Positions 6,449 through 54,900 of a stretch of 64,000 bases of DNA are shown here, piece by piece. The stretch's first letter is position 1, and the number at the start of each line of letters is the position of its first letter. The stretch is from positions 4,384,001-4,448,000 of the forward strand of contig OZ242318.1 of NCBI GenBank assembly GCA_965208105.1, read 5' to 3'. A model generated the notes under the pieces. The model saw nothing but the letters and a program-made list of their open reading frames with translations. It was not told the DNA's origin and made no database searches. Source of the DNA: Candidatus Latescibacterota bacterium. GTDB lineage: Bacteria > Latescibacterota > UBA2968 > UBA8231. The translations under genes and the position numbers were made by a program.

Positions 6449-6465
6449 CCGGGACTACCGTGAAG

Positions 6466-21505: not shown

Positions 21506-21538
21506 GGGAATTTCTCGTCGCAAAAGGAGGGTGTCATC

Positions 21539-21632: not shown

Positions 21633-22960
<1,328 letters not shown>

Positions 22961-22964
<4 letters not shown>

Positions 22965-26533: not shown

Positions 26534-26600
26534 CAGCCCGGATGGACTTTTTCAACGGGCTGCTGGACCGGGAATGGCCGCAGGAAAGGGAGAGGTGGAA

Positions 26601-37537: not shown

Positions 37538-38041
37538 ATGAATTCCATCGTCTTCCCTATTCGCTTTTTTATTTCGCTCGGTCTATTGCTTTCTCTCCAT
37601 GCGGTTGGATACGCATCTCCCTCGCCTGTTGATAGCACCCGCTTCTGCCATCCGCTCCAATTAGAGGAGGGGGAGCGCGTCCGCAAGGCCGCCAAGCCGG
37701 TGACGGATTTAAGCGTGGGCGAGCCGCGCACGGTGCGAATGATCTATTTCGCGCCCAACGACAGGCCGTTCCGTGTCGAGGTCGACGAGAGGATGAAGAG
37801 GATCATCCGACGGGTTCAGGCTTTTTATTCCCAGCAGATGCAGGCTCACGGAAATGAGGACATGACCTTCCGCTTTGAAACCGATGCCGATGGCCAGCCA
37901 ATCGTCCACCGCCTGCAAGGCCTACATCCCGACAACCACTATCTCAACGATCCACATTCGACAGTGTTTGGCGAGATCGAACAAGTGTATGATACCTTTG
38001 CCAATATTTACGTCGCCTACATGACATCAGTCGCGCTGTGA
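37538..38041 (+). CDS. Segment 1 of the frameshifted surface protein (signal peptide plus N-terminal part of the protease domain)
   Basis: Signal peptide; EPRTVRMIYFAPNDRP...TFRFETD. Confidence 0.6.
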   Translation: MNSIVFPIRFFISLGLLLSLHAVGYASPSPVDSTRFCHPLQLEEGERVRKAAKPVTDLSVGEPRTVRMIYFAPNDRPFRVEVDERMKRIIRRVQAFYSQQMQAHGNEDMTFRFETDADGQPIVHRLQGLHPDNHYLNDPHSTVFGEIEQVYDTFANIYVAYMTSVAL

Positions 38042-39702
38042 TCCCACAAGGAGGTAGTTTGGGCAAAACTGGAGGGCAAGCATCGGATGGAGGGGATTTT
38101 ACCTGGGATACGGTTGCCCATGAACTCGGACACGCCTTCGGTCTGGCGCACGACTTTCGCGACAATGCCTACATCATGTCGTATGGGTCGCCTGGTAATA
38201 CCCTGTCGGCGTGCGCTGCCGAATTTCTGTCCGTGCACCCTTATTTCAATCCCCAGGTCTCAACTGAGGTTGGGCAAGGACCAACCGTCGAGTTTCTTTC
38301 AACACCTGAGTATCCGGCTGGCGCTACGAGCTTCTCAGTCCAGTTCAAGGTCAGTGATCCAGACGGCCTGCACCAAATTCTGGTGTTCACTACCACCCAT
38401 GACCTTCACCTTGCAGCCGGGTTTTCCGAATTGAAAGCGTGTCGTGGATTGGAGGGACAGAAGGAGGCGATCGTCGATCTCGATTTTGAGGACGATGCGG
38501 CCACTTTTTTCTTCTCCTACGTCTTTCGTCCGATTCAAGTGGAGGTCATCGATACGGACGGAAACGTCAGGCGCGCTTCCTTTGACCTTGTGGAGATCCC
38601 GCAGAACCAGGTCGCCAAGCTCGAGGGGCATGTGAACGAGGTTGGGTCCATGTCGTTTTCCCGCGATGGAACATCTCTTGCCACCGGGTCGCTTGACGGT
38701 ACGGTCAAGTTGTGGGATGTCGAGACGGGAACAGATACTGCCACCTTTTCGGGGGCCCATCCTGTTGCGCTATCTTCCGATGGAACGACTCTTGCTTCCG
38801 TCAGCTCAGGATCGGATGTAACGCTGTGGGACGTTGGCAGGCGGCAGTCCATCGCCACACTGGCGGGGCATTCTGGGGTGGTCACCTCGCTCTCCTTTTC
38901 TCCCGACGGCAGAACCCTCGCTTCCGGGTCAGAGGATAATTCGATAAGGCTTTGGGACGTTGGCAGGCGACAGTCCATCGCCACGCTGGAAGGGCATACA
39001 GGATTGGTCACTTCCCTCTCCTTTTCCCCTGACGGCGGAACCCTGGCCTCCGGGTCGTATGATCGGACCGTCAAACTCTGGGATGTAGCCGCCCGCCGGA
39101 CTATCGCCACGCTCGAGGGTCATAGGGATTGGGTCAGCTCGGTATCGTTTTCTCCGGATGGAAGAACTCTCGCCTCCGGTTCATTGGATAGGTCGGTCAA
39201 GCTGTGGGACGTGGCCACCCGGCAACCGAGCTCCTCCTTCGAAGGTCATGCGGATGTAGTCACCGCGCTGGCGATTTCCCCCGACGGGTCTTCCGTCGCA
39301 TCCGGGTCAGGCGATAGAACGGCCAAAATTTGGGACATTCATACGAAGGAGATTCACGTCGAATTCGGCCATACGGCTCCGGTTTCGTCGCTGGCGTTTT
39401 CAGGCGATGGCACGACCCTGGCATCGGGAACCAGGGGAGGAATCGTCAGGGTTTGGAACGTCTCCGAGTGGACGGGCCCCCGTCCCCAAATGATAGTGAA
39501 AATCTCGGGAGACAATCAGCAGGGCACACCCGGTGAACCGTTGGATAATCCCTTCGTCGTTGAAGTGAGAGATCAGAACGGCAATCCGCTAAATGGTGCC
39601 GAGGTTACATTCAGGGTCACCGCGGGTGACGGGCTGATCGGTGCCAGGTTTGCCGTGGAGAAGGCTACGACAGATGCCGATGAAGCATTGAAAGAATCCT
39701 AA
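38038..39702 (+). CDS. Segment 2: metzincin Zn motif, 7 WD40 repeats, Ig domain
   Basis: HELGHAFGLAH, IMSY Met-turn, GH...FSPDG...WD repeats, KISGDNQQG. Confidence 0.7.
   Translation: MIPQGGSLGKTGGQASDGGDFTWDTVAHELGHAFGLAHDFRDNAYIMSYGSPGNTLSACAAEFLSVHPYFNPQVSTEVGQGPTVEFLSTPEYPAGATSFSVQFKVSDPDGLHQILVFTTTHDLHLAAGFSELKACRGLEGQKEAIVDLDFEDDAATFFFSYVFRPIQVEVIDTDGNVRRASFDLVEIPQNQVAKLEGHVNEVGSMSFSRDGTSLATGSLDGTVKLWDVETGTDTATFSGAHPVALSSDGTTLASVSSGSDVTLWDVGRRQSIATLAGHSGVVTSLSFSPDGRTLASGSEDNSIRLWDVGRRQSIATLEGHTGLVTSLSFSPDGGTLASGSYDRTVKLWDVAARRTIATLEGHRDWVSSVSFSPDGRTLASGSLDRSVKLWDVATRQPSSSFEGHADVVTALAISPDGSSVASGSGDRTAKIWDIHTKEIHVEFGHTAPVSSLAFSGDGTTLASGTRGGIVRVWNVSEWTGPRPQMIVKISGDNQQGTPGEPLDNPFVVEVRDQNGNPLNGAEVTFRVTAGDGLIGARFAVEKATTDADEALKES
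38827..39063 (+). repeat. Near-identical 126-bp tandem WD40 coding units
   Basis: TGGGACGTTGGCAGGCG(G/A)CAGTCCATCGCCAC starts at both 38827 and 38953. Confidence 0.75.
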
Positions 39703-39776
39703 CTCTTAGCTCCATCCCGGGACCAAACACGGTTGAGGTATCCGTCGCAGGGCTGGAGCATCTGGTTTTCAACTCT

Positions 39777-41207
39777 GTGGGGGTTGGGACCCCTTCCGTG
39801 TCGGTCCCGGAGGGGAACTATCCCACATGGCATCTGCCCGAGGCCGCCATCATCCGGCTGGCAAGAGGAAGAGTCGGCCACAGCCACAGGGCGGTTGCCT
39901 ACTCACCTGACGGGAAAATCTTCGCCGTGGCGAGTGGTGTCGGCCTGTGGCTGTACGATGCGGTGACATTGGATGAACTCTCGCTGCTGCCAATGGAATT
40001 GGTCAATTCGGTGTCCTTTTCTCCAGACGGCACAACTCTGGCCTTGGGGTCGGGTGGCGGGAGTGGTGGTGGTGGGCTCACCCTGTGGGACTTGGCGACA
40101 GGTAGCCTCAAAGCCACCCTTGGGGCAAGAGCCAGAGTAAAATACGTGTCCATTTCCCCCGATGGGAAGATTCTTGCCTCTGGCACCAGTATCTCGCGGA
40201 TCGAATTGTGGGATGTGGGAACCGAGACGCACATCACCACCCTAAGGGGACAGACATCCCCGGGGACGTCGGTGTCCTTTTCTCCCGATGGGAGAACCCT
40301 TGCCTCAGGGGAAGAGGACGGCACGGTCAGGCTGTGGGACATTGAGACGCACGCCAATATTGCCACCCTTGAAGGTCATAGCAGGAATGTTGAATCAGTG
40401 TCTTTTTCTCCCGACGGGACCACCGTTGCCTCCGCGTCCTCTGATGGCACGATCAGGCTGTGGGACCTTGAGACGCGCACCACCATCGCGATTCTTGATC
40501 ATGGGCATTCGGTTATTGCGTTATCCTTTTCTCCGGATGGCAGGGTTCTCGCTTCCGGGGATGCGGATGGATATGTCAATCTTTGGCAAGTGGAGACAAG
40601 AGAAAAAATCGCAACGCTTACAGGCCACAGGCGGGCTGTCAGCGCGGTGTTGTTTTCTCCCGATGGGGAATCCATCGCTTCCGGGTCTTATGCCGGAGGT
40701 GTCAGGGTCTGGGACGTGGCGACCGGCAACACCACCGCTATGTTTGAAGGCCATAAGTACCCAATTTCCTCCCTATCGTTTTCCCCGGACGGGGCTACCC
40801 TGATTTCCGGGACCGGGCAGCCCGGGGATTACCAGATAAAAAAGTGGGACCTGGACACAGGTACCGAGATTGGCACTCTTGAGGGAGATATCATCGAGGC
40901 CCTTTCCTTTTCACCCGACGGAACCATGTTCGCCACCGGTTCTCAGGATAATAAGGTCAGGTTGGTGGACCTAGCGACCGGGGCCAATTTAGCCATCTTG
41001 AAAGGGCATGGGCACTTCATCAGCGAGGTGTTGTTTTCGCCCGATGGTTCCCTTCTTGCCTCCGCGTCGCATGATGGCTCCATCCTGCTTTGGGATATGC
41101 GGCTCGCTCTCCCCCATCCGCGGACCCTGACGAAGATCGCGGGCGACAATCAGCAAGGACCAGCGGGAAGCCAATTGACCAGTCCTATAGTGGTCTCCGG
41201 TGCTTGA
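39777..41207 (+). CDS. Segment 3: about 10 WD40 repeats
   Basis: Repeated SFSPDG..LASG..D..(I/V)RLWD. Confidence 0.7.
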   Translation: MGVGTPSVSVPEGNYPTWHLPEAAIIRLARGRVGHSHRAVAYSPDGKIFAVASGVGLWLYDAVTLDELSLLPMELVNSVSFSPDGTTLALGSGGGSGGGGLTLWDLATGSLKATLGARARVKYVSISPDGKILASGTSISRIELWDVGTETHITTLRGQTSPGTSVSFSPDGRTLASGEEDGTVRLWDIETHANIATLEGHSRNVESVSFSPDGTTVASASSDGTIRLWDLETRTTIAILDHGHSVIALSFSPDGRVLASGDADGYVNLWQVETREKIATLTGHRRAVSAVLFSPDGESIASGSYAGGVRVWDVATGNTTAMFEGHKYPISSLSFSPDGATLISGTGQPGDYQIKKWDLDTGTEIGTLEGDIIEALSFSPDGTMFATGSQDNKVRLVDLATGANLAILKGHGHFISEVLFSPDGSLLASASHDGSILLWDMRLALPHPRTLTKIAGDNQQGPAGSQLTSPIVVSGA

Positions 41208-43135: not shown

Positions 43136-43951
43136 TCAGGTACCCAGCAGCGGCCGCAGCTCGATGGCGTGCTGGGCGAGCACCGCGTCGGCGTCGTGGC
43201 TGCTTCCCGGCTCGTGAATCACCTCGACCGAGCAGTAGCCGTCGAATCCCTCGGCGGCGAGCAGGCGCAGCGGGGTCCGGTAGTCGAAGGTCCCGGCGCC
43301 CAGAGCGGCGCTGACCTCAACCTGGCCGTCGACGATGCGGCCGTCGTGAACGTGGGCATGGAGGGTGTACTTGCCCAGCACCTGGAAGCTCTCCTCCACC
43401 TCCTCCATAACCCGCTGCGGGTGCATGAAGTCCCACAGAATCCGCAGGTGGGAACTTCCCGCCCGCTCCACCACTGCGCGCACCGGGGCCGAGGCGCACC
43501 ATTCGTCGTGGGTCTCCAGGAGCAGGGTCACACCGCGGCTTTCGGCGGCGGGCAGCACCTGGGCAAATCCCTCCACCACGTAGTCGACCACCGCCATCAA
43601 CTCGAGGCGCCGGTCCCGTTCCCCCCCGAAGACCCTCACCAGGCTGCAGCCCAGGTCGGCCGCGAGGTCGATGTATTTCTTGACCTCCTCAATTTGACCG
43701 GCGCGCTCGGCAGGGTCGGATGCGGCCATCCGCGCGCCGCTGGCGATACAGCAGACCTCCAGCCCTTCGGCCTCCATTCGAGACCGGATCCGCTCCCGCT
43801 CCCGGCCGCTGAGGGTGGCCTCGATGCCGCATGCGTGGCCCCATTCCACCCGCGGCTCGAGCCCCTGGTAGCCGTGGCGGTGCATTCCCTCCACTACCTG
43901 GTCCAGGGTCCAGTCTGGACATACGCTGCTCATGGCCGCCAGTCTGATCAT
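43136..43951 (-). CDS. Sugar phosphate isomerase/epimerase (xylose isomerase-like TIM barrel)
   Basis: LLETHD, WDFMH, HVHD, SVE metal ligands. Confidence 0.88.
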   Translation of the reverse strand: MIRLAAMSSVCPDWTLDQVVEGMHRHGYQGLEPRVEWGHACGIEATLSGRERERIRSRMEAEGLEVCCIASGARMAASDPAERAGQIEEVKKYIDLAADLGCSLVRVFGGERDRRLELMAVVDYVVEGFAQVLPAAESRGVTLLLETHDEWCASAPVRAVVERAGSSHLRILWDFMHPQRVMEEVEESFQVLGKYTLHAHVHDGRIVDGQVEVSAALGAGTFDYRTPLRLLAAEGFDGYCSVEVIHEPGSSHDADAVLAQHAIELRPLLGT

Positions 43952-44047
43952 GTTTCCGTCCTCTCCACGGTGCACCCGGCGAGGGAAGCGGCCGGGTCCG
44001 GCCGTTCCGGTCTGTGTCGGGAGAATTTCAGGTCCAGCCCTCCGCCT

Positions 44048-45520
44048 TCAGCTCATCCAGTCCTTGCGGTACTGGTCCGACCACTTGGTGGTGATTTTTT
44101 TCGACTTGGACCAGAAGTCGATGGCGCCGGGACCGGTTATGTCGCCTCCGAAGCTGCTCTGGTTCCAGCCCCCGAAGGCGAAAGGTTCCCGCGGCACCGG
44201 CACACCGATGTTGATTCCGATCATGCCGGAGCTGGCGCGTTCGCTGAAATGCTGGGCGACTGCGCCGGAGTTGGTGTAGATGGCCGCGGCGTTGCCGTAC
44301 GGATTGGCGTTCTCGATCTCCAGGGCCTCGTCCAGGTCCCTGCAGCGAATGACGGTAAGGGTCGGACCGAAGATCTCGTCGCAGGCGGCCTCGTGATCCG
44401 GGGCGGCGTGGTCAATGAGCGAGGGGCCGACATAATGGCCTTCGGGATGCGCCTCCGCGGAGATGGATCGGCGCCCGTCCACCGCCGCTTCGGCGCCGTC
44501 GGCCTCGGCCCGGTCGATATATCCTTCGATGCGCCGAAGCGCCTTGTCGCTGATCACCGCGCCAATGTCCCTGCCGGCCTCCATGCCGGCCATCTTCTCC
44601 CGCACCTTGTCGACGATGTGATCGGTGGCTCCCACGGCCAGAAGCACGCTCGCGGCCATGCAGCGCTGGCCGGCGCAGTCGGTGGAGGATGCGATGATGT
44701 TGGCGGCGGTGGTCTCCGGATCGGCGTCGGGCATCACCACCAGGTGGTTCTTGGCCCCGCCCATGGCGCGCACCCGCTTTCCGGCCGCGCAGCCGCGGTC
44801 ATATACCTTGCGGGCAACCGGGGTCGAGCCTACGAAGCCGAGGGCGGCGATGCCGGGATGGTCGCAGAGGGCTTCGACAATTTCGGCATCTCCATGGACT
44901 ACCGAAAATATGCCTGCCGGCAACCCGGCTTCGGCGAAGAGCCTGGCCACCTCCACGCCTCCCAGGGGCGTCTGCTCGGATGGCTTGAGGATGAAGGCGT
45001 TGCCCAGGCCGATGGCCATGGGGGCCATCCACAGCGGCACCATGGCGGGAAAGTTGAACGGGGTGATCCCGGCGACCACCCCCAGGGGATAGCGCAGGGT
45101 CTTGCACTCGATGCCGCGGCTTACCTCGAGCACGTTCCCGGCGGCGATCTGCGGCAGGCTGGTGGCGAACTCGATGCACTCGATGCCGCGCCCGACGCTG
45201 GCCGTAGCTTCTTCCTCGGTCTTGCCGTTCTCGAGGCTTATCAGCTCCGCCAGGCTCTCCGTTCGTTCCTCGAAGATGGCCTTTGCCCTGTACATAACCT
45301 GTACCCGCTCCTTGGTGGTCTGGGCTCCCCACTCCTCCTGGGCGGCGGCCGCACTCTCCACCACCGCGTCGAGCTCCGCCGCGGTGGTCACCGGGACCTC
45401 GGCGATGGCGCCGCCCGTGGCCGGGGCCCGCAGGGGCAGAATGCGCTCGGATATGCTCTCCACCTCCCGTCCGCCGACGATATTCGGCACTTTTGAGGCG
45501 GCAACTGTCTGGGTGCTCAT
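44048..45520 (-). CDS. mmsA: CoA-acylating methylmalonate-semialdehyde dehydrogenase (MmsA/IolA)
   Basis: ITPFNFPAMVPLW, KPSEQTP, GGAKNH, CAGQRCMA, GINIGVPVP. Confidence 0.92.
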   Translation of the reverse strand: MSTQTVAASKVPNIVGGREVESISERILPLRAPATGGAIAEVPVTTAAELDAVVESAAAAQEEWGAQTTKERVQVMYRAKAIFEERTESLAELISLENGKTEEEATASVGRGIECIEFATSLPQIAAGNVLEVSRGIECKTLRYPLGVVAGITPFNFPAMVPLWMAPMAIGLGNAFILKPSEQTPLGGVEVARLFAEAGLPAGIFSVVHGDAEIVEALCDHPGIAALGFVGSTPVARKVYDRGCAAGKRVRAMGGAKNHLVVMPDADPETTAANIIASSTDCAGQRCMAASVLLAVGATDHIVDKVREKMAGMEAGRDIGAVISDKALRRIEGYIDRAEADGAEAAVDGRRSISAEAHPEGHYVGPSLIDHAAPDHEAACDEIFGPTLTVIRCRDLDEALEIENANPYGNAAAIYTNSGAVAQHFSERASSGMIGINIGVPVPREPFAFGGWNQSSFGGDITGPGAIDFWSKSKKITTKWSDQYRKDWMS

Positions 45521-45548
45521 GGTGCAACTCCTCTCGTTTCGGTCTCGA

Positions 45549-46559
45549 TCAGGTGGGGCGAAGCTCCACCGGCCTGTTGGCGGCGCCGGAGCGGATGATC
45601 CCGTCGAGGACGCTCAGAACCTGCAGGTTGTTCCTGCCACTGGTTTCGGGTTCGGGACCGCCCCGCAGCCAGGCGGCGAAGCTGGAGGCCACCTGGCGGT
45701 CCAGGGGGGAGCGGTCGAGATTTTCGTCGATGGCCAGGGGCCGCAGGCCGGTCTGGCGATCCTCGCCATGGAACAGCTCCTCTTCGGGGCCGAATCCGCC
45801 CTGGCCGCGGTAGACCAGGGCAGCCCTGGCGCACTCCACCCGGAATTCGCACCAGTGGGTGCGCGCGTCCGAAGTGGATACCATGGCCATGCGGCAGCCG
45901 TTCTCGAATGTCAGCTCCGCGGTGACCGCCGCTTCGCGCCTCCACGTGGTCTCCGGAGGGCGGTAGGCGTGGCCATGGACCTCGACCACGGGCTGGTTCA
46001 TCATCGCAATCAGCGAGTCCACCTCGTGGACGGTCATCTGCCACAGTTGGGAATAGGGGGAGTCGGGGTACTCCGCGCCTCGCGCCTTGTAGGAGACCAT
46101 GTGTCCCGTCTGCGGGGTCCCGAAGGCGTTGGCGCCCAGCAGGCGGCGCACCGTGCGCTGTCCCGGCAGGTAGCGCCACTGCTGTGTGACCGCGATCTTG
46201 AGGCCGCGGGACTCGGCGGTGTCGAGCAGCCGCCGCGCCGATTCCAGCTCTACCGCGAAGGGCTTCTCGACCAGGACGTGCTTGCCCGCCAGCAGGGCCT
46301 TCTCGATCAGCTCTTCGTGGGTCCGGGCCCAAGTGGCGATCATCACACCGTCGCAGTCGGATTCCGCCAGCGCCTCGTCGAAGGAACGGTATCCCATTCC
46401 CGCAGGCAGGCTGAAATGCTCCAGCGCCTCGGCGAGCCGGCCGGGGTCCAGATCGACCAGCCCGGCCACCTCGAACTGAGCGGGGAGTTCAATGAAACTC
46501 CTCAGGTGGCTGCGGCCGCGGCCTGCCCCCGCCACGATCATGCGAATCGGTTCGGTCAT
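45549..46559 (-). CDS. Gfo/Idh/MocA family oxidoreductase
   Basis: GAGRGRSH, GKHVLVEKPF, VHEVD. Confidence 0.9.
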   Translation of the reverse strand: MTEPIRMIVAGAGRGRSHLRSFIELPAQFEVAGLVDLDPGRLAEALEHFSLPAGMGYRSFDEALAESDCDGVMIATWARTHEELIEKALLAGKHVLVEKPFAVELESARRLLDTAESRGLKIAVTQQWRYLPGQRTVRRLLGANAFGTPQTGHMVSYKARGAEYPDSPYSQLWQMTVHEVDSLIAMMNQPVVEVHGHAYRPPETTWRREAAVTAELTFENGCRMAMVSTSDARTHWCEFRVECARAALVYRGQGGFGPEEELFHGEDRQTGLRPLAIDENLDRSPLDRQVASSFAAWLRGGPEPETSGRNNLQVLSVLDGIIRSGAANRPVELRPT

Positions 46560-46587
46560 GGATATCTCCTTGGCAAAGTATTGCGGT

Positions 46588-48075
46588 TCAACCTTCTTCC
46601 CCCAACCTGTAGGAATAGAGGCTGGCGGCGTTGTCGGACTGGATGTGCAGGCGGATCCTGCGGCCGGCGAAGCGGGAAAGATCCCTGCCCTCCTCGCCCC
46701 AGGTAATCTCACAACTCACCTCGTCGCCGCATATCAGGCCGTTGCAGGCTTCGAAGGAAAATCCCGGCGCCTCCTCCATATCGTCGATCACCCGCACCAG
46801 CACCCTGGCAAAGGGGGCGGCGGCGTTGATGTAAAGCCTGGGAGCAGTGACCATGATGGGCTCGGTCATGACCTCTCCTCCACGGATGCCGCAGCGCAGG
46901 GCCACGAACCCGTCCTTGCGCAGGGTCGCCACACCGATGAAGCTCTCGAACATGCCCTGGGTCCCATGGGCCTGCGGTCGGCCCGAGTACCACATGTACA
47001 GGGTGTCGCCCCTGAGAACGGGAGGGTTGGCCGAGAAGGTCGCCCAGGCGCAGTCCCAGGAACCGGGAGACCCCACCGGAAGAAACTCCTCGCGCCTGCC
47101 GACCCGCTGCCAGTGGTCCAAGTCGCGGGCGGCCACCAGTTGGGTGGGTCCCAGCTCGGCCGCGGATTGGAGCACGCCCAGGAACCCCAGGTACTGGTTC
47201 CCGTAGACGAAGGGGGTCATCACGTAGAACTGGTCCATGGGGTGGTCGAAGTCGTCCGGCTTCAACACGGTCTTGAGCGCAGTCCAGTGGACGAAGTCGG
47301 GGCTGGTGGACATGGCGATGACGCGGCGGTACTTCTTCCACTCCACCACGAAGTGGTCCAGGATGGTGCCGTAGCGGCGCGAGGTGGCGATGTAGCGCCC
47401 CTGCATGGGATCGTGGACCAGGGTTCCTCCGTCGCCCCCCCGGGGAACGCAGATCTCCTCGCCCAGCTTCCAGTGGATGCCGTCGGCCGAGAAGAGGGAG
47501 TACATCCCGTGGTGGTCCTTTATTTTTTCCAGGAAAATCTTGCGCGCCTTGTTGCGTTCCTCGACGCTCATCCCGGTCTCGTCGAACCGGGGCGCGTCCT
47601 CGGTCATGCGCTGCTGGTAGATGCCCATCTTGTAGCGCCTGGAAGGGTCTTCCTCGTGAATGTCCTTGATGAAGCCCCAGGGGTCTCCGCCCAGATCCCC
47701 CATTTCCGCTGTGGGATAGACGATGTTGTTGGCTCGCGAGCCCTCGCAGGGAATGATGCCCAGCTCGGGTTTCTCCCACTCCACGCCGTCCCTGGAGGTG
47801 GCATAGCACATGAAATGACCGCTGCCGGTGCGAAGGTAGAGCTCCTCGTGAGCCGAGAGGTACCACATCTTGAACAAGCCCTCATCGTCGTCGAAGATCA
47901 CCGACCCCCACAACTGCACCGCCTTTCCCTCCCACGGTCTGTCGGGGCTCAGCACCGGCTCGGCCTGCAGGCGCCTGGGCTGCTGCACCTTGCGCACGAA
48001 TCCGGGATGGTCCTGGACCTCCGCGTCGTCGACGAAGAGATGCAGCCCAGGATCGTAGAGATTACCACCCTTCAT
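46588..48075 (-). CDS. GH32-like five-bladed beta-propeller protein
   Basis: LFVDD, ATSRDGVEWEKP, SADGIHW, SPDFVHW, LRKDGFVAL, LYSYR. Confidence 0.8.
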   Translation of the reverse strand: MKGGNLYDPGLHLFVDDAEVQDHPGFVRKVQQPRRLQAEPVLSPDRPWEGKAVQLWGSVIFDDDEGLFKMWYLSAHEELYLRTGSGHFMCYATSRDGVEWEKPELGIIPCEGSRANNIVYPTAEMGDLGGDPWGFIKDIHEEDPSRRYKMGIYQQRMTEDAPRFDETGMSVEERNKARKIFLEKIKDHHGMYSLFSADGIHWKLGEEICVPRGGDGGTLVHDPMQGRYIATSRRYGTILDHFVVEWKKYRRVIAMSTSPDFVHWTALKTVLKPDDFDHPMDQFYVMTPFVYGNQYLGFLGVLQSAAELGPTQLVAARDLDHWQRVGRREEFLPVGSPGSWDCAWATFSANPPVLRGDTLYMWYSGRPQAHGTQGMFESFIGVATLRKDGFVALRCGIRGGEVMTEPIMVTAPRLYINAAAPFARVLVRVIDDMEEAPGFSFEACNGLICGDEVSCEITWGEEGRDLSRFAGRRIRLHIQSDNAASLYSYRLGEEG

Positions 48076-48220
48076 ATTTCATCCTTGCCTGGGTAAGGCC
48101 GACCGGGATGGCGAGACCGGGGGCGCGGCAGGCGCGGCGCCGGGGCCGTCTCCGCGGAGGTTCCGTCTCCATGTGGCAACCTTCCGCATGGATTTGGGAG
48201 AGGGTTGCTCCATCCCCGGA

Positions 48221-49255
48221 TCAGCTCCCACCCGGGTACTCCTCTCGCCAGTCCTCGCCCTTGTCAGGTGCATAGTCCGGCGTTTCCAGCCCGGAGCGGG
48301 GGTAGTGGTAGGCGCGGGTGTCGGCTTCATCCTTGTAGACGTACCAGGTGCAGGGCGCGGCGGGGTTCAGGACGTGATCCAGGGGCCGGAAGGGACGGCC
48401 GTTGCGCCGTCCCGGAAGCCACTCCTTGGCGATGCAACAATGGGTGCAGTACCAGTGGACCCCGGTCTTCTGCCAGGTCCACGAGTGCGCTTTTTTGTTG
48501 GTGCCCCGCTCGCCCGCCGCATGAGGTCCGCGCCCGGTCTCCGGGTCGCCGCGGCGCAGAACGCCGCCGCTGCCGCAGAGCTCCATAACCATCTTGTAGC
48601 GGTCCCCCTCGTCCACCAGGGTCATGTCGCCGCGCCTCCGGTCACCGCTGAAGTGGCCGCCGCGCATGCCTTCCACGGTGAGGGCCAGCTTCTCGTGGGG
48701 CGTCATCTTGTTCCAGCTCTCGTAGCGCTCCCCCCAGATTCCGCGATGGGTTTCCAGGATCGACTCGAGGACGGTTTCTTCTCCCCAGGTCGCGGCGAGG
48801 TAGGTGAGCAGATCCTGGATCCAGGCCACCAGCACGTCGTGGGGGAATTTGAACTGGAGGCGCATGTGGTCGAGCAGTTCGACGGCCTCGACCGACCTGC
48901 CCGGGCCGCCGCTGCCCTGCCCGGCGATGGCCTCCTTACAGCGGTCGCGCAGGTCCACTCCGAAATCGTAGGTCTCCCAGGTCTGCAACAGGCTGGGGGC
49001 GAGGTTTCCCGCCTCCGCCGGATCGACTCCCTTGTGGGCCAGGATATAGCGCATGATATCCCGCAGCCAGGTTACGAGAATGTCGTGCATGATGCGCATC
49101 TCCTGGTGAAAATAGTCCACCAGGGCACAGGCCTCCTCCGATCGGCCGCGGGCGATGGCCTCCTCCGCCAGGGTCTGAGTAGAGACTCCAAGGGTTTCCA
49201 GATCGTCCATCCGCAGCAATCGGCCCAGGACGGCATTGTGTTCGAGCCTGATCAT
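48221..49255 (-). CDS. Uncharacterised Cys/His-rich protein with a duplicated helical N-terminus (possibly ATC-hydrolase/V4R-like metal-binding fold)
   Basis: ATGA overlap with the upstream gene. Motifs LCGSGG, WYCTHCC, PCTW; two HD(I/V)LV(T/A)W repeats. Confidence 0.8.
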   Translation of the reverse strand: MIRLEHNAVLGRLLRMDDLETLGVSTQTLAEEAIARGRSEEACALVDYFHQEMRIMHDILVTWLRDIMRYILAHKGVDPAEAGNLAPSLLQTWETYDFGVDLRDRCKEAIAGQGSGGPGRSVEAVELLDHMRLQFKFPHDVLVAWIQDLLTYLAATWGEETVLESILETHRGIWGERYESWNKMTPHEKLALTVEGMRGGHFSGDRRRGDMTLVDEGDRYKMVMELCGSGGVLRRGDPETGRGPHAAGERGTNKKAHSWTWQKTGVHWYCTHCCIAKEWLPGRRNGRPFRPLDHVLNPAAPCTWYVYKDEADTRAYHYPRSGLETPDYAPDKGEDWREEYPGGS

Positions 49256-50283
49256 TGGACCTCCTCCCGCACCTGCCGGGCCGCCTGCACCAGGACCTTC
49301 ATCTTCTCCAGCGCCAGCCAGCGCACGGTCTGGCTGAAGCCGCAGTCCGGCGCCACCCACAGCTTGTCCGCGGCGCAGTACTCCAGGGCGCTGCGGATTC
49401 GCCCCGCCACCACTTCCACCGGCTCCAGGTCGCGCCCCTTGACGTCTATGACGCCGGCGCAGAGGATCTTGTCACCGCCGTATTCCCGCCACAGTTCAAT
49501 CTCGTCCATGCCGCGGCTTGCGAACTCTATGTGGATTACGTCGGCTTCGAGGTCCTTGAAATGGGGGGCAAAGGCCGCAAAGCTGCGGTTCGAGGTGGCC
49601 GGCCGGCCGCGAAAATTGCCGAAGCATAGATGGAAGCCGATGGTGGCCTCGATCCCTTCGACGCAGGCGTTGAAGATTTCCACCATCTCCTGCGCTCCGC
49701 CGGGGACGATCCAGTAGGCGGGCTCGTCGAACTGCACGTGGCTGCAGCCGGCCGCAACCACGGCGCGCAGCTCCCTGTTGACGTAGGGCACCAGGGCCCA
49801 GGCTATCTCCCCTTTGTTGGCATAGATCTTTCCCGGGTCGATGCGGAAGGCCTGGGTGATCGGACTTTGCAGCGGGGCGATCAGCGGCAGTTCGGTGCGG
49901 CTGCGGGCGTACTTCCATTCCTCCACGATGCCATAGCCGCCGGGCACCTCCAGGGACTCCACGCAGCGGAAGGATTCCAGCCGGTCGGGGCCGGGATAGC
50001 CCCATTTGCGCGGGAATTCCAGCGGCTCGAGGCCGCGCACGAAGTGGTGGAAGTTCCAGGTGAAATCGGCGCGCTGCATCTCGCCGTCGGAAATGATGTC
50101 GAGGCCGGCCTCCTCCATGTCCATGATGGCGAGGTTGACGGCGTCCTTGAGCGCCTCGTCGATGTCGGCCGGCCCCATCTTGCCCTCCTCCACCGCCTCG
50201 CGCACCACCCACATCCAGCTCGGGATGCCGTGGCTGCCGATGGCCTGGGTGGGAATCAGGGGTAGATTCTCGTATGTCAGCAT
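49252..50283 (-). CDS. Cobalamin-independent methionine synthase II family (single-barrel MetE-like) protein
   Basis: GLDIISDGE, QFDEP, Zn ligands HLC...E...PDCGF. There is no N-terminal folate-binding barrel. Confidence 0.9.
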   Translation of the reverse strand: MLTYENLPLIPTQAIGSHGIPSWMWVVREAVEEGKMGPADIDEALKDAVNLAIMDMEEAGLDIISDGEMQRADFTWNFHHFVRGLEPLEFPRKWGYPGPDRLESFRCVESLEVPGGYGIVEEWKYARSRTELPLIAPLQSPITQAFRIDPGKIYANKGEIAWALVPYVNRELRAVVAAGCSHVQFDEPAYWIVPGGAQEMVEIFNACVEGIEATIGFHLCFGNFRGRPATSNRSFAAFAPHFKDLEADVIHIEFASRGMDEIELWREYGGDKILCAGVIDVKGRDLEPVEVVAGRIRSALEYCAADKLWVAPDCGFSQTVRWLALEKMKVLVQAARQVREEVQ

Positions 50284-50305
50284 TCAGGTTCACTCCGGTA
50301 TTGGG

Positions 50306-51178
50306 CTAGTCCATCTCGTATCCGCCGTCCACGTTCAAGGTCTGGCCGGTGATGTAGTCGGCGTCGGACGAGCACAGGAAGGCGATGGCGGCGGCAATGT
50401 CGCCTGGACTGGAAGCGCGTTGCAGGGGAATCGTGCGGATAAAGGCGGCCATGGCCTCCCCGGGCCGGGCGCCGAAGAGGGCGCCGCGGTCCTGGTCGAT
50501 GGCCTCCCACATGGGCGTCGGCACGACCCCGGGAGCAACGGCGTTGACGTTTATGTTGTAGGGAGCCAGCGCCAGGGCCGCCGACTGGGTGACGCTGATG
50601 ATGGCAGCCTTGCTGGCGGCGTAGTGGGTCGACAGCGGCCGTCCCCGCCGGCCCGAAATGGAGGCCAGATTGACGATCTTTCCGTAGCTTTCGCTGCGCC
50701 GCGGCGCCTGTTCGGATTCGCCCGCCTCCATGCTGAAGACGTCGGCAGGCGACTGGGACTTCTTCAGATCGTCGGGGGCCTGGTCGATCATCCGCCGCGC
50801 CACCGCCTGCAGGCAGAAGAAGGTGCCGCGCAGGTTTACGTCGATCACCCGGTCCCAGTCCTCCTCGGTCAGGTCCAGCATCGGCTTGGTCTGCACCACC
50901 CCGGCGTTGTTGACCAGAATGTCCACCTTGCCGAAGTGGGAGACGACCTCATCCACCATCCCGCGCACCGACTCCGCATCCGATATGTCCACGGGACAGG
51001 CCAGGGCGCGCCGTCCCGATTCCTCTATCTCGGCGGCGGTGGCCGCTGCCGTCTCCTCATTGTATTCCGCGACTGCTATGTTGGCGCCTTCCCCGGCGAG
51101 ATACAGCGCTATGCCCTTGCCTATGCCCTGTCCCGCGCCGGTGACGATCGCCGTCTTACCCGCCAGTCTCTGTCCCAT
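50306..51178 (-). CDS. SDR family oxidoreductase
   Basis: TGAGQGIG, NNAG, YAASK, NVDGG. Confidence 0.93.
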   Translation of the reverse strand: MGQRLAGKTAIVTGAGQGIGKGIALYLAGEGANIAVAEYNEETAAATAAEIEESGRRALACPVDISDAESVRGMVDEVVSHFGKVDILVNNAGVVQTKPMLDLTEEDWDRVIDVNLRGTFFCLQAVARRMIDQAPDDLKKSQSPADVFSMEAGESEQAPRRSESYGKIVNLASISGRRGRPLSTHYAASKAAIISVTQSAALALAPYNINVNAVAPGVVPTPMWEAIDQDRGALFGARPGEAMAAFIRTIPLQRASSPGDIAAAIAFLCSSDADYITGQTLNVDGGYEMD

Positions 51179-51203
51179 GGCTGCCGCTTCCCCACCCAAG
51201 ACA

Positions 51204-52859
51204 CTAGCGCCAGGCGTCTACCGAGACGCTTTTATGGTAGTTGGCGCCCATGATGCGCCAGTAGCCGTTGGTCTCTCCACCGACTACGACCAGATGGATT
51301 TTATCCTGGGGGAATACCGGAATCAACTCGTCGTCCGCCGCTGCGAGCATGGCAGCGTAGGGTTCGACCCCATTCAAGGCCCGAGGATGGAGATAGTTCT
51401 CAACGAGCTGGTAATCCCAGAACACGGCGGCGGGCATGGTGGCGTTGTCGTGCACCCAGCGAATCAGTTTCTCCTTGGTGTCGAATCCGCCCCGGTCCAC
51501 GAACTGGCGCGCCGTTATGGGGTCCAACACCAAGGTGGGCGACTCGAAGGGGTCCAGTCCCCGCAGCAGGTTGGTCACGTGCTCGCGCCAGAATTTTTGC
51601 CGCAATCCGAGGGAGAACGAGGTGGCGCGGCAGGATCCGAAAATGCTCGCCACGCTCTCGTCGGCGGCAAAGCCCTTCTCCACGTGGAATGGCTCCCATG
51701 GGCTTCTCTCCTCGTTTTCGGCATAGGTGAGGTTGTTGTAGGCGTAGTTGTTCCCCTGGGACCCCATATAGGTCTTTCCGGGCACCGACCCTCCCTGCAG
51801 GTTCTGCGACAGCAGGCCATAGGCGCGGCCGATGGTGGCGTTGGCGTGATTGTACGGACCCATGGCGCCGATTCCGCAATTCATCCCGATCTCGCGGCGG
51901 ATGGGGCCATTGACCACCACCATCGCCGCCGCCGAGCTGGTCGTGCTGCCGCGCGCGGTTACCCCGCTGGCGGCCAGGGCCAGGATCACCGGGAAGTACT
52001 CGGGCTCGGCCCCGGCCATCACCGCGTTGACCGCCACCTTCTCCACCGTGAAGCTCCAGGCTTCCCGCGTCGCCGTCGGTCTCAGTTCACCTACCGTCTC
52101 CTCCGGGCTGTGGCTGGTGGCCGCCAGCATCGCCTCTACCTTCTCCCGGGTGGGCAGGACGATGGGCAACCGATCAGTCCACTCTTTCTCCAAAAAGAGG
52201 CGGTGCAGGTTATCCTCGGTATCGGGCTCGACCCATCTCGGCGTCGAGCGTTCGAAGCCGCCGGGATTCTCGTCCTCCTCGCTCAGGGGCCGGGTGAGGA
52301 CCTCCACCACCTCCGCCATCACCGGCCGGCCGGTGACCGGGTCCCTGCCGTCGACGTAGGCTCTCAGCTCCTCGGGGGATTTGCCCATGACGGGCTGGGG
52401 CACGAAGACGAAGCGCTGGCGAGGCATGCCCCGGGCGTAGGCGACCTGGGTCACTACGTCCGCGAAGGACTCGGTCTGGATGGAAGCGGTGGGCACTCCG
52501 TACTCGTCTTCCAGGGTGATGCAATGCTCGGCGACCGCCGGCGCGCAGGTGCTTCAGTGGCCGACGCCGAGGATGGCCGCGTCTCCCCTGGCGCGGATCT
52601 CCTCGAAGAGCCCCGCGTCCCGTTCGGTGTAGACTCCGGACTTGCGCCGGGTCTCCGTCCTCACCCGGGGCATGTGCTCGGCGAACCAGTTCCCCATCTG
52701 CCTCATGAGGATGTCGCCGTCGTCGAAGCGGCAGTCCACGAGGTAGACGGTCCTGCCATCCAGGCCGGAGACCCTCGGGGCCATGCTCAGGGGCTCGATG
52801 GCGGGAGGGTGCCCCGTGGGGTTCATCACCGCAATTTTTCCGTTTCCTGTCTTTTCCAA
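51204..52859 (-). CDS. UGSC-family selenoprotein (in-frame TGA at 52556-52554, U-S-T-C motif) fused to its usual partner domain
   Basis: Track ORFs 52554..52859 and 51204..52496 are in frame: ...ILGVGH-TGA-STCAPAVAEHCITLEDEYGVPT. TTG start with GGAGGAG RBS (alternative ATG 52826). C-terminal part has WTDRLPIVLPT, AVNAVMAG, NHANATIGRA. Confidence 0.85.
52525..52553 (-). promoter_or_regulatory. Candidate bacterial SECIS element
   Basis: mRNA UGA-AGCACCUGCGC-GC-CGGC-GGUC-GCCG-A-GC-A. The apical loop starts with GG, 17 nt after UGA. Confidence 0.6.
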
Positions 52860-53758
52860 TGTGATTCTCCTCCGATTTTTCCGATATGGTCCCTCAGTAT
52901 GTCCAGAAATGCCTGCGCCGCCGGCGACCTCCGCCGCCCACGGTGCTCGATCAGACCGATGACCCGGGGTTCCAGGCCGCGCACCCGGACGGACCGCAGA
53001 AGACCTGACTCGGCCTCCTTCTCAACCGCCATCCGGGGCACCAGGGCGATCCCCATGCCAACTTCCACGAAGCGCTTGATGACCTCGATGCTGGCCAGGT
53101 TCATCGCCGGCTGAAGCTCAAGATTCGCCCTGATGAACGCCTCCTCCAGGAGCCGGCGGCTGGTGCTGCCGCGCTCCAGGGCAAGAAGCGGGAATTCGAC
53201 GATATCCTGCAGGCGCACCTGGTTCCTTCGCGCCAGCGGGTGGTCCGGCCGGCAGATCAGCACGTCGCTGCGCTCGAAAAGCTCCTCGCTGACCAGGTCG
53301 CGGTGCTTTGCCGGCAGCGTCGCCAGGCCGAAGTCCACCGCGTGGTCGAGCACCATTTGTCCTATTTCCGACGACATGCGGTTGCGGATATCCAGCTCTA
53401 CGCCGGCATACTGCTCCCTGAACTGCTGCAAAGGGCCGGGGAGTAGGTAGGTGCAGTTGGTGTCGCTGGTGCCGATCACCAGGCGCCCACGCAAGACCTG
53501 CTGCAGGGTGGCGATTTCCTCCCTGGCCACTTCGAGCCGATCGAACACTTCCTGGACGCGGCGGTAGAGGATCTCTCCAGCCGGGGTCAGGCGGATGTTC
53601 TTGCGCAGGCGCTCGAAGAGGATTTCTCCAAGCTCTTCCTCCAGGGCCTTGATCTGCAGGCTGATGGCCGGCTGGGTGAGGAAGAGCTTGTCCGCCGCGC
53701 GGGTGAAACTCCTCTCCCGGGCGATCTCGAAGAAGCCGCGGAGTTGATACAGGTCCAT
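52826..53758 (-). CDS. LysR family transcriptional regulator
   Basis: SFTRAADKLFLTQPAISLQIKALEEELG HTH, RERGSTSR-like ERGSTSR segment (CysL/CbbR-like). Confidence 0.95.
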   Translation of the reverse strand: MDLYQLRGFFEIARERSFTRAADKLFLTQPAISLQIKALEEELGEILFERLRKNIRLTPAGEILYRRVQEVFDRLEVAREEIATLQQVLRGRLVIGTSDTNCTYLLPGPLQQFREQYAGVELDIRNRMSSEIGQMVLDHAVDFGLATLPAKHRDLVSEELFERSDVLICRPDHPLARRNQVRLQDIVEFPLLALERGSTSRRLLEEAFIRANLELQPAMNLASIEVIKRFVEVGMGIALVPRMAVEKEAESGLLRSVRVRGLEPRVIGLIEHRGRRRSPAAQAFLDILRDHIGKIGGESHWKRQETEKLR

Positions 53759-53785
53759 AGAGGCGTTCGGTAGCATTTCGAGAAA

Positions 53786-53820
53786 TTATGGAAAGCATAA
53801 TATAAATAAATTTCACTTAT
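53786..53820. promoter_or_regulatory. LysR-type binding box(es) in the divergent LysR/purA intergenic region
   Basis: ATAA-N7-TTAT at 53806-53820 (T-N11-A) and TTAT-N7-ATAA at 53786-53800, in an AT-rich patch. Confidence 0.55.
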
Positions 53821-53877
53821 CCGTAAATCTAGTGTATTCTCGTCATCCCACCTATTGCCGGCAAAGGAGGAACCACC

Positions 53878-54900
53878 GTGTCAGCCATCATCGTCGTCGA
53901 CGCCTTCTGGGGTGATTCGGGAAAGGGAAAAATCGCCGCTTACCTGGCCGCGCGCCATTCCGCCGCCTTCTGCGTGCGCGCCGGCACCGGCACCAACGCC
54001 GGGCACAGCGTCTACTTTGAAGATAAACCGGGGATCCGCACCCATCAATTGCCCTGTGGCTTTCTGTGCCCGGAGACCCAGGTCCGGGTGGGCAGCGGCG
54101 TAGCCCTGGACCCGGAGCAGTTCTTCGCCGAACTCGAGCGCCTCGACCCCGAGCACAATCTCAGCGAGCGCACCCTGGTGGATTTCCGCTGCCCGCTCAT
54201 TCTGCCGGAGTACCGCCGCCGCGAAGCCGCCGACGTGCACCTTCGCCATACGGTCGGCTCGGTGGCCAGCGGCACTGGAGTCGCCCGCGCCGAATTCGTC
54301 CTGCGGCGGGCGAGGCAGGCTGGAAAATCCCCCCGGCTCCAAGGTTTTACCACGGACGTGGCCCGGGAACTCAACTCCGCCTGCGGCACCGGCTCCACCG
54401 TGGTCATCGAGGGCAGCCAGGGCACCCATCTCTCCCTGGCTCTGAGCGGCGACTATCCCTATTGCACCTCTGACAACTGCACCACCGCCGCATTTGTCGA
54501 CGACGTGGGCCTGAACTGGCAGCATATTTCCGACGCCGTGCTGGTGGTCAAAGCACTGCCCAGCCGCGTCGGTGCCGGGCCCCTTCCTCACCAGCTCGAC
54601 CAGCGCGAGGAAGAGGAGCGGGGCATCGTCGAGTACGGCGTCACCACCGGCCGCCGCCGCCGCAAGGCAGCCGCAATCTCCTGGCCGCACCTGGAGGAAG
54701 CCGTAATCCTCAATGGGCCGACCCAGATCGCCCTTACCTTCTGCGACCACCTCGACCCGGGGGTCCGGGGCGCCCGTTCCCGCGGCCGACTGACTCGCCC
54801 GGTGCGCCGGCTCATCGAGGAGATCGAGACCCGTTTCCAGGTTCCGGTTACCCTCTGCGACTGCGGCAGATATTTCGAGGATATAGTCGATCTGGCCTGA
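53878..54900 (+). CDS. purA: Adenylosuccinate synthetase, short archaeal-type
   Basis: WGDSGKGK, NAGH, EGSQG, YPYCTS, EYGVTTGRRRR; only 340 aa. Confidence 0.85.
   Translation: MSAIIVVDAFWGDSGKGKIAAYLAARHSAAFCVRAGTGTNAGHSVYFEDKPGIRTHQLPCGFLCPETQVRVGSGVALDPEQFFAELERLDPEHNLSERTLVDFRCPLILPEYRRREAADVHLRHTVGSVASGTGVARAEFVLRRARQAGKSPRLQGFTTDVARELNSACGTGSTVVIEGSQGTHLSLALSGDYPYCTSDNCTTAAFVDDVGLNWQHISDAVLVVKALPSRVGAGPLPHQLDQREEEERGIVEYGVTTGRRRRKAAAISWPHLEEAVILNGPTQIALTFCDHLDPGVRGARSRGRLTRPVRRLIEEIETRFQVPVTLCDCGRYFEDIVDLA

Follow-up and report, generated by a model that had tools for sequence, protein, structure and literature searches.

This analysis concerns an array of nine genes at positions 43136-53776, minus strand, of a 64,000-nucleotide stretch (the window) of contig OZ242318.1 from a Candidatus Latescibacterota bacterium (assembly GCA_965208105.1). 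The array is very probably a lineage-specific mosaic of three modules that were assembled recently. Part A comprises a LysR-family regulator and a long-form selenoprotein of the UGSC family (UGSC-long). Part B comprises a short-chain dehydrogenase (SDR), a core-MetE-like zinc enzyme and an orphan protein with four conserved cysteines and conserved histidines (Cys4/His or Cys/His protein), and is a module of sugar-catabolic clusters in other genomes. Part C comprises a glycoside hydrolase-like (GH-like) protein, a GFO/IDH/MocA oxidoreductase, a methylmalonate-semialdehyde dehydrogenase (MMSDH) and a protein of the AP_endonuc_2 family. In a first-pass annotation, parts A and B had been proposed as a candidate thiol/selenol-dependent pathway, an interpretation that is partly supported. 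The five genes are indeed co-oriented on the minus strand (48221-53776, by open reading frame (ORF) analysis) and separated by overlaps or gaps of at most 25 nt, the ORFs, the TGATG and ATGA overlaps and the gaps of 22 and 25 nt all being confirmed. They are only the 5′ half of the array, which goes on past position 48221 through four more genes, so the five do not make up the whole unit.

Conservation of the gene order

The order found in the window, LysR-UGSC-SDR-MetE-Cys/His-GH-like-GFO-MMSDH, is repeated in a single one of the 80 genome loci that contain UGSC-long. This locus, L013, belongs to a metagenome-assembled genome of Latescibacterota that is 90% identical. No Cys/His match lies near UGSC-long in any of the other 79 loci and, conversely, none of 80 metagenome loci with the Cys/His gene contains a match to UGSC-long or LysR (genes in these loci were called as ORFs, with a ranking by length and by G+C at third codon positions, GC3). 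The Cys/His family is absent from the whole of 4/5 genomes with UGSC-long. In two genomes of the window genome's own family (G086 and G130), the MetE-like gene adjoins the Cys/His gene, while the Sec form of UGSC-long (Sec, selenocysteine) is on a different contig with no LysR or SDR gene within 1.5 kb. The Cys/His family itself is rare, being found in 3/151 sampled genomes of the window's phylum, its own genome counted, and in 4/301 sampled genomes of the phylum of G151, of which one alone has a full-length match.

Even the closest relative differs at its 5′ end. The LysR protein of L013 (L013:9217-9966) ends at about residue 211, with its effector domain cut, and the divergent PurA-like gene that precedes the array in the window is missing there, a BFN-domain gene (L013:8592-9011) following directly. 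This evidence gives no support for placing the selenoprotein and the MetE-like enzyme together in a conserved thiol/selenol pathway. The UGSC family, which was expected to gain its first functional context from the array, obtains none from these neighbours, because the unit is not conserved and the Sec protein is absent at the Cys/His loci.

The SDR, MetE-like and Cys/His genes in sugar-catabolic clusters

Conservation of the neighbourhood, proposed in the first-pass annotation as a check, holds for the SDR, MetE-like and Cys/His genes, which recur in many genomes, but not for the full order, which is confined to L013. Among the 43 metagenome loci with room for a gene directly upstream of the Cys/His gene, this gene encodes a MetE-like enzyme in 28; it is a class-III aminotransferase gene in 10 loci and codes for another protein in 5. 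The MetE-like gene is followed by the Cys/His gene on one strand in 45/80 loci, with a median gap of 11 nt; the gap is at most 20 nt in 32 of these 45 and the two genes overlap in 8. Orthologues of the SDR (53-81% identity) are present in 35 of the 80 loci. The UGSC-long loci other than L013 yield generic and scattered SDR matches (28-43% identity).

In the 14 loci that extend 5 kb to either side of the gene, SDR and Amidohydro_2 genes occur in 12 each, GFO/IDH/MocA and MetE-like genes in 10 each, Lyase_1 and sugar-type binding-protein genes in 9 each, and an aminotransferase gene in 8. According to Pfam and NCBIfam, the partners include a RhaM mutarotase, a fuconolactonase-like Amidohydro_2 protein, a rhamnulokinase-like FGGY kinase, an L-fucose isomerase and a class II aldolase, together with a CUT1-type ABC transporter, a GntR/FCD regulator, the class-III aminotransferase and Lyase_1; E1 components, cupin, glyoxalase and AP_endonuc_2 families also recur. 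Such neighbourhoods are the signature of the catabolism of a fucose/rhamnose-like sugar that carries an extra group. The contigs appear to be mainly of Chloroflexota type. In a marine locus type (L140, L153, ~3800-16100), two sulfatases and the MetE-like/Cys-His pair are followed by genes for a radical-SAM/SPASM protein, for an MR_MLE dehydratase and for a PhyH dioxygenase, an arrangement that hints at a substrate derived from sulfated glycans. Literature searches returned nothing that joins cobalamin-independent methionine synthase with rhamnose mutarotase, and none of the papers listed for MetE-like proteins with gene cluster, dehydrogenase or thioether was relevant.

The MetE-like zinc enzyme

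The MetE-like gene of the array (49252-50283, minus strand) encodes a single-barrel, or core, protein of 343 aa that matches Meth_synt_2 (PF01717) with 96.1 bits. It falls under the cut-off of all eight curated methionine-synthase models, the best being PRK04326 (199.2 bits vs 406). Its closest solved relative is 3RPD, with 102.9 bits vs ~66 for the C-terminal halves of MetE, and 3RPD is identified as MesD in the available text of Price et al. 2021 (PMC7857596). When the residue roles given there are mapped through an alignment to 3RPD, the zinc site described in the first-pass annotation proves intact, with ligands H218, C220, E253 and C314 invariant in 22/22 linked orthologues. The homocysteine-binding residues S17 and E68 are likewise invariant in all 22, and D186 is kept in at least 90%. 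Since this amino-acid-binding triad is retained, the thiol would be homocysteine or a very similar compound, not coenzyme M (CoM). A search for ComA (PF02679) found no match in the window's genome, which is a single contig estimated to be 93.9% complete, while the control was matched in three genomes.

Twenty-four linked MetE-like orthologues form one clade (support 0.989, MAFFT and FastTree) apart from seven paralogues of the same genome, an eighth paralogue having been omitted from the tree. In total, this genome contains nine Meth_synt_2 genes, eight besides that of the array. Of the seven paralogues examined, all keep the zinc site and six have the exact homocysteine triad. Their genes (loci L209-L216 on G000:C1, e.g. 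235256-236230, 765129-766112, 1200126-1201037 and 2605841-2606842) adjoin genes for GH32, GH95, GHL6, acetyl-xylan-esterase (AXE1-like), GFO, AKR and lactonase proteins and for up to three PhyH proteins. An expansion of Meth_synt_2 in glycan-catabolic surroundings is unusual. Among database proteins, 926 orthologues are found at E<=1e-30, named methionine synthase by homology.

The genome yielded neither MetH nor MetE at full length, and MetH was matched best by split fragments. One of these MetH-like fragments is a homocysteine S-methyltransferase (S-methyl_trans) gene located in the window, where it adjoins a gene for S-adenosylhomocysteine hydrolase (20486-21559, minus strand, and 21633-22964, plus strand). 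A methionine-sulfoxide reductase B (SelR) gene is near (26574-27005, plus strand).

The Cys4/His protein

The Cys4/His gene (48221-49255, minus strand) encodes a protein of 344 aa, among them 7 Cys and 15 His, in which two tandem helical repeats precede a Cys-rich C-terminal half. Residues 23-77 and 99-159 constitute the repeat (hhalign 96.9%). None of 411 close homologues contains a Pfam domain, and a profile search at E<=1e-3 extends the superfamily to 663 representative clusters. Across 106 diverse members, the cysteines C227 (100), C270 (89), C273 (87) and C302 (96) and the histidines H272 (94), H201 (90) and H139 (83) are conserved; the conserved set as a whole comprises H139, R198, H201, C227 (in a CGxxG motif), Y269-C270-x-H272-C273, C302 and K308. 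The protein is regarded as an enzyme or a carrier in its own right that most likely binds metal or Fe-S.

Attempts to place it in a known family gave little. The second repeat produces weak matches to B12-binding_2 (PF02607) in 8/18 members at E<=10, and one protein (P0183) reaches 24.4 bits vs a cut-off of 23 in a match limited to model positions 2-52 of 74 (residues ~102-153); no B12-binding (PF02310) domain was found in the Cys/His proteins. A Pfam scan of 18 of the 150 distant relatives listed, including all six of ~500 aa, revealed no informative domain, one ROK domain and otherwise weak TPR/CTLH noise being all that was seen. With the family profile, the best hit in PDB has an E-value of 0.35 and nothing is credible. 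Only unnamed clusters, at 0.93, were returned by the ESM Atlas, and its B12-binding_2 (0.83) and ATC_hydrolase (0.81) leads were dropped for falling under the 0.9 line. The structure model has a predicted local distance difference test (pLDDT) score of 69.5, with a confident helical half and residues 228-296 below 50, and a Foldseek search of PDB with it gave nothing at E<=0.001.

More distant paralogues, of which a locus has two or three copies, are accompanied by SDR, GFO, RhaM, MR_MLE, P450 and aminotransferase genes. One Chloroflexota locus (L205, G416:C27:1-20000) contains three of them within 16 kb, surrounded by a P450, a double RhaM, MR_MLE, GFO, three SDRs, AKR, ADH and EamA transporters.

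The selenoprotein

The second gene of the array (51204-52826, minus strand) is split in ORF calls into 52554-52859 and 51204-52496, which are one frame broken solely by the TGA at 52554-52556. This TGA is decoded as Sec. Read-through yields GVGH-U-STCAPAV and places U91 and C94 in a product of 540 aa. In the 80 genome loci and the window, the codon at this position is TGA in 50/81 and TGC or TGT in 31/81. Just 3′ of the codon, a hairpin core CCGGCGGUCGCCG is found by strict motif search in 35/36 TGA forms and in 0/31 Cys forms, and at equal G+C the mean minimum free energy of the hairpin region is -15.1 kcal/mol for TGA forms vs -8.2 kcal/mol for Cys forms, a comparison of related sequences and not a formal test. 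In the window this SECIS-like hairpin (Sec insertion sequence; 52520-52547, minus strand) has a GGUC loop and begins 7 nt past the UGA. Folded as a single sequence, 73 nt around the UGA are no stabler than shuffles (z +2.04). The machinery for decoding is present: selA, selB and selD score above their cut-offs in the genome, and tRNA-Sec (selC) also occurs. The selD gene itself (G000:C1:3653826-3654752) has one in-frame TGA, its product being presumably a selenoprotein SelD. The Sec assignment of the first-pass annotation thus holds, by the alternation of TGA and Cys codons, the TGA-specific hairpin and the four sel genes. The U-x-x-C motif is U91-S-T-C94, which reads USTC where the family name has UGSC, and the protein is not a small one but has 540 aa and two domains.

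With its N-terminal 160 residues, the protein matches Pfam UGSC (PF24696) at 89.4 bits (cut-off 25); the NCBIfam equivalog NF041046 gives 71.8 bits, short of its cut-off of 125. The two models have 147-172 positions, compared with 540 aa here; what is shared with the family is the N-terminal match, a U/C-x-x-C motif and the alternation of Sec and Cys. UGSC proteins were described as abundant, with unknown function, in a 2008 survey (Zhang & Gladyshev 2008, PMC2398784), the available part of which mentions that some are fused to a conserved 'Unknown_1' domain; the accessible portions of reviews from 2022 and 2026 continue to give no known function. The full-length selenoprotein has matches in more than 7,800 database proteins. 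Database forms of 430-441 aa are gene-caller copies cut at the TGA, and forms of 546-572 aa carry Cys.

The C-terminal ~370 residues are highly conserved and have no Pfam, PDB or fold assignment. A PDB search with the UGSC-long profile gave nothing credible (best E 0.32), and the ESM Atlas returned for the C-terminal domain only what appear to be Sec-truncated copies of its own family. The structure model has a pLDDT of 72.8 and a predicted template modelling (pTM) score of 0.52, with an N-domain pLDDT of ~90. The N-domain is modelled as three-layer alpha/beta, for which VIA gives flavodoxin-, CheY- and B12-domain-like chains at Z 8-10.5, dozens of them tied and all covering residues 31-199 only; Foldseek finds generic alpha/beta domains (best E 2e-3). 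This flavodoxin- or Rossmann-like model differs from the Trx-like fold that was guessed in the 2008 survey, as far as its available text goes (PMC2398784). No sequence match to the GRDB family is found at E<=0.01.

Other genomes offer a different set of neighbours for this protein. The commonest is a 313-aa thioredoxin-reductase-like flavoprotein (Pyr_redox_2), which adjoins UGSC-long in 21/80 loci. In Rhizobiales with the Cys form (L053, L056, L062, L063, L067 and L091), a run of genes encodes malonyl-CoA decarboxylase, an AMP-binding protein, UGSC-long, the thioredoxin-reductase-like flavoprotein, a GntR/FCD regulator, SBP_bac_6 and a permease. This run is a better starting context for the function of UGSC-long than the window. 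In seven Caldilineaceae loci, the flanking genes of UGSC-long encode PhyH dioxygenases and homologues (25-27% identity) of the GH-like protein of the window. With the misleading context removed, the leads for the UGSC family are the thioredoxin-reductase-like partner and the GH-like neighbour found in two phyla.

A model for the array and points that weigh on it

The data show the anatomy of the genes, the decoding of Sec, the pattern of gene co-occurrence and the conservation of residues; from them we infer what class of substrate is used, which metal the Cys/His protein would bind, in which direction an alkyl group would move and any part that the selenoprotein may play in this pathway. In part A, the LysR regulator would accompany a selenol/thiol redox enzyme that uses U-S-T-C and in which a flavodoxin-like domain is fused to a putative catalytic or substrate domain; in other lineages, recycling would most plausibly be ensured by the neighbouring thioredoxin-reductase-like flavoprotein. 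In part B, a substituted 6-deoxyhexose-like sugar would be oxidised by the SDR, together with the GFO protein. The zinc site of the MetE-like enzyme would bind homocysteine, which would take over an alkyl, most simply a methyl, substituent or be released from a thioether. The Cys4/His protein probably contains Fe-S or zinc and might perform a non-redox step, carry a group, act as a metal-dependent helper or catalyze an adjacent step. Part C is typical of oxidise-then-eliminate catabolism of a sugar or cyclitol. Mosaic structure and part-B mechanism together make an explanation with somewhat better than even chances; taken by itself, the mechanism of alkyl handling via homocysteine on a substituted 6-deoxyhexose is a doubtful proposal. 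The selenoprotein may have been recruited as a redox helper in this lineage, a role kept possible by its placement here, by the GH-like neighbours in Caldilineaceae and by the PhyH genes around both systems.

Several observations pull against this explanation. Many of the metagenome loci are short and several come from near-identical populations, so that the counts are not independent. The array is intact in L013, and its TGATG and ATGA overlaps argue for co-expression, for which reason a newly evolved link between the selenoprotein and part B may exist. A Meth_synt_2 gene of 25% identity lies 2.4 kb from UGSC-long in a Binatia locus (L088). Because the GH-like homologue adjoins UGSC-long in the seven Caldilineaceae loci, the selenoprotein may belong with part C instead of being a mere passenger. 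Concerning part B, the Cys/His gene also occurs with the aminotransferase instead of the MetE-like gene upstream (the 10/43 loci above), and no MetE-like gene is among those annotated around the Cys/His paralogues of G416, G195 and G452; the protein is thus not a dedicated partner or subunit of MetE-like enzymes. The C-terminal half of its model is of low confidence (pLDDT 30-46), and a wide VIA search with this model gives at best Z 8.1, to designed and other helical bundles, which is within the helical background.

Comparison with known systems and alternative explanations

Like MesD, the MetE-like enzyme is a single Meth_synt_2 barrel without folate domain, has H/C/E/C zinc ligands and homocysteine-type Ser/Glu/Asp residues, and is encoded beside a partner of unknown biochemistry on which, as the available text on MesD and MesX has it, the enzyme apparently depends (PMC7857596). 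The differences are that the partner here is not DUF1852 (PF08908), which gives no match at E<=10 in 18 Cys/His members, that the gene context is sugar catabolism and not biosynthesis, and that the score to 3RPD is only 102.9 bits. A MesX search found none in the genome, though the control genomes also gave no match.

Oxidative (non-phosphorylative) and phosphorylative pathways are known for L-fucose and L-rhamnose, and the part-B clusters of other genomes share with them RhaM, SDR, Amidohydro_2, FGGY kinase, L-fucose isomerase, aldolase and an ABC transporter. These pathways have no known place for the MetE-like and Cys/His proteins, the class-III aminotransferase or Lyase_1, and the array of the window is without RhaM, lactonase and transporter. 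Glycine and proline reductases rely on a thioredoxin-reductase-type flavoprotein, whose gene is near, to recycle the U-x-x-C selenide-sulfide of their selenoprotein B. UGSC-long resembles them in having such a flavoprotein as neighbour in the 21/80 loci, and differs in the missing GRDB match and in that no pyruvoyl subunit gene is seen. Demethylation of 6-O-methyl-D-galactose by a P450 has been described in marine bacteria, in which methylated sugars block carbohydrate catabolism, in the accessible parts of two reports (PMC6292453, PMC10033563). A P450 also lies beside the distant Cys/His paralogues and RhaM in the Chloroflexota locus L205. The P450 of the marine bacteria is an oxygen-dependent monooxygenase which, in the same texts, releases formaldehyde; transfer to homocysteine is a hypothesis put forward here.

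The comparison that guided the first-pass annotation was the epoxyalkane:CoM pathway. In Xanthobacter, the pathway comprises XecA, two SDRs and the disulfide oxidoreductase 2-KPCC. By analogy, all five genes would form one thiol/selenol pathway in which a thioether, made by the MetE-like enzyme, is the substrate of oxidation by the SDR, and in which the U-x-x-C protein serves either for reductive cleavage of the thioether or for recycling of the thiol carrier. The likeness is that of a MetE-superfamily zinc enzyme with an intact site beside an SDR and a redox protein with a selenol-thiol or dithiol pair; tight packing, the overlaps and the order kept in L013 also speak for it, and the Lyase_1 of part-B clusters elsewhere scores 494.7 bits with the CoM-biosynthesis model XcbD, which is under the cut-off of 600 and under its own adenylosuccinate-lyase score. 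The analogy is weakened by the homocysteine-type residues kept in the MetE-like enzyme, which misfit CoM, by the single SDR, by the lack of any flavoprotein (pyridine-nucleotide) disulfide oxidoreductase in the array and by the lack of a ComA match in the single-contig, 93.9% complete genome. Conservation of the redox protein as a neighbour is not seen, there is no co-occurrence beyond one close relative, and in G086 and G130 the parts are split over contigs. This makes a single five-gene pathway highly improbable. At the opposite extreme, the genes might only share a strand, being unrelated and without common regulation. Independence of the modules elsewhere, the 145-nt gap after the Cys/His gene and the truncated LysR of the nearest relative agree with this, but two start/stop overlaps and gaps of 22-28 nt, the lack of a terminator-like site on the coding strand, the order kept in L013 and a contig from an RNA library across one junction make it very unlikely.

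Two further explanations concern part B alone. Chance could have placed a new, partner-dependent biosynthetic methionine synthase of MesD/MesX type among catabolic genes. In favour of this, MesD is the nearest protein of solved structure, none of the zinc and homocysteine residues has been lost, the genome search turned up neither MetH nor MetE at full length, database names point the same way by homology, and the coupling to a partner of unknown family is tight, as it is for MesD and MesX in the available account (PMC7857596). Most well-flanked loci, on the other hand, are sugar-catabolic clusters with transporters and GntR or LacI regulators; the genome has eight further Meth_synt_2 paralogues, all seven examined being intact; the pair is present in 3/151 genomes of the phylum, too patchy for an essential step; and the Cys/His protein is found without MetE-like genes, while no curated methionine-synthase model reaches its cut-off. 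A plain synthase is consequently unlikely. About equal weight can be given to the idea that the Cys/His protein is the core enzyme, e.g. an Fe-S sugar-acid dehydratase or lyase acting after the SDR and a lactonase, with an optional MetE-like enzyme whose ligand is not a thiol. SDR and fuconolactonase-like Amidohydro_2 genes are each present in 12/14 well-flanked loci, a known sugar-acid dehydratase family (MR_MLE) appears only in the L140 type among the recurrent families and 34 flanking genes, the four Cys are conserved superfamily-wide and the gene occurs without the MetE-like gene. Against it are the MR_MLE dehydratases encoded alongside Cys/His homologues in L205, L207 and L140, the confidently modelled half, which is a helical bundle unlike known Fe-S dehydratases, and the full homocysteine-binding set, which is hard to explain without an amino-acid thiol.

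The preferred explanation, a mosaic with alkyl handling in part B, also has a more far-reaching version of low probability. In it, the MetE-like/Cys4-His pair would be a fifth, partner-dependent type of core methionine synthase, recruited to strip an alkyl group from a fucose/rhamnose-type sugar onto homocysteine. A methyl, other alkyl or thioether substituent would be removed either by passing it to homocysteine or by releasing homocysteine, and the Cys4/His protein would be the activating or carrier subunit. Such a homocysteine-dependent route for methylated sugars, put forward as a hypothesis, would be new and would provide an oxygen-independent alternative to P450 demethylation; in that case, this sponge-associated bacterium would have, in its nine intact Meth_synt_2 genes, a whole family of substituent-removing enzymes. 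For the preferred explanation itself, the consequences would be that several hundred 'methionine synthase' database proteins in sugar clusters probably do not serve housekeeping methionine synthesis, and that the usual neighbour of the MetE-like gene founds an unannotated superfamily, for whose biochemistry the gene pair is a handle.

Organization, expression and surroundings of the array

The array is flanked by strand switches on both sides. Its first gene (52826-53776, minus strand) encodes a LysR-family regulator of 316 aa with HTH_1 (76.8 bits) and LysR_substrate (176.2 bits) domains, for which the top NCBIfam model is a selenium-metabolism-associated LysR (198.9 bits, under the cut-off of 250). 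The LysR stop and the selenoprotein ATG share TGATG (52828-52824). The selenoprotein gene is separated by 25 nt (51204 to 51178) from the SDR gene (50306-51178, minus strand), which encodes a classical SDR dehydrogenase of 290 aa with an insertion of ~40 aa, an adh_short match of 201.6 bits and the motifs TGAGQGIG, NNAG and YAASK at positions 13, 90 and 186. A gap of 22 nt (50306 to 50283) precedes the MetE-like gene, whose stop is overlapped by the Cys/His ATG in ATGA (49255-49252).

The part-C genes, all on the minus strand, follow after 145 nt. They encode a GH-like protein of 495 aa without Pfam family and with weak resemblance to GH130 phosphorylases (46588-48075), a GFO/IDH/MocA oxidoreductase similar to inositol and glycoside dehydrogenases (45549-46559), a CoA-acylating MMSDH (44048-45520; TIGR01722, 499.9 bits, above the cut-off of 448.5) and, as the last gene of the array, a xylose-isomerase-like TIM-barrel protein of the AP_endonuc_2 family (43136-43975). 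Besides this 145-nt gap and the two start/stop overlaps, the array has gaps of 22-28 nt. A consensus scan of the minus strand between 42800 and 54200 gave no terminator-like site, such a scan being weak evidence in this phylum, and no Rfam family at gathering score and no tRNA were found in the whole window.

Upstream of LysR, a spacer of 101 nt (53777-53877), AT-rich within a window of 64% G+C, separates the array from a divergent gene. It contains an ATAA-N7-TTAT dyad of the LysR T-N11-A type, read directly from the sequence, and a sigma-70-like promoter match (53799-53827, minus strand; consensus scan, 9/12 hexamer matches). As consensus matches inside an AT-rich spacer, they prove nothing, and over the whole scanned region three promoter-like sites were found vs 1.4 expected, which is weak evidence.

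Several studies have metagenome runs, of sponge and marine origin, in which at least half of the sampled sequence words of the stretch are present. Short contigs, 97-99% alike, from two metatranscriptome runs of different studies fall in the genes for LysR, the SDR, the MetE-like, Cys/His and GH-like proteins and GFO; X20 alone covers UGSC-long, X19 alone covers MMSDH, and no RNA piece is listed for AP_endonuc_2. The SDR/MetE-like junction is spanned by one such contig (50219-50365). These data are compatible with expression and co-transcription. They are weak evidence because DNA carry-over is possible and contigs cannot prove a single transcript; as Logan contigs, they do not allow uncovered parts and differences in depth to be interpreted.

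The divergent gene beyond the spacer (53878-54900, plus strand) encodes a PurA-like protein of 340 aa that resembles archaeal-type adenylosuccinate synthetase. It is under all curated cut-offs (best PRK04293, 311.5 vs 368) and also matches the PurZ model. Lyase_1 genes, which are adenylosuccinate-lyase-like, recur in the part-B clusters of other genomes, and a tie between them and the PurA-like gene is only a candidate. On the other side of the array, two large WD40-repeat genes and a small ORF (37538-41207, plus strand) have a GC3 of 0.62-0.66 vs 0.77-0.90 for their neighbours, and these genes may be foreign DNA.

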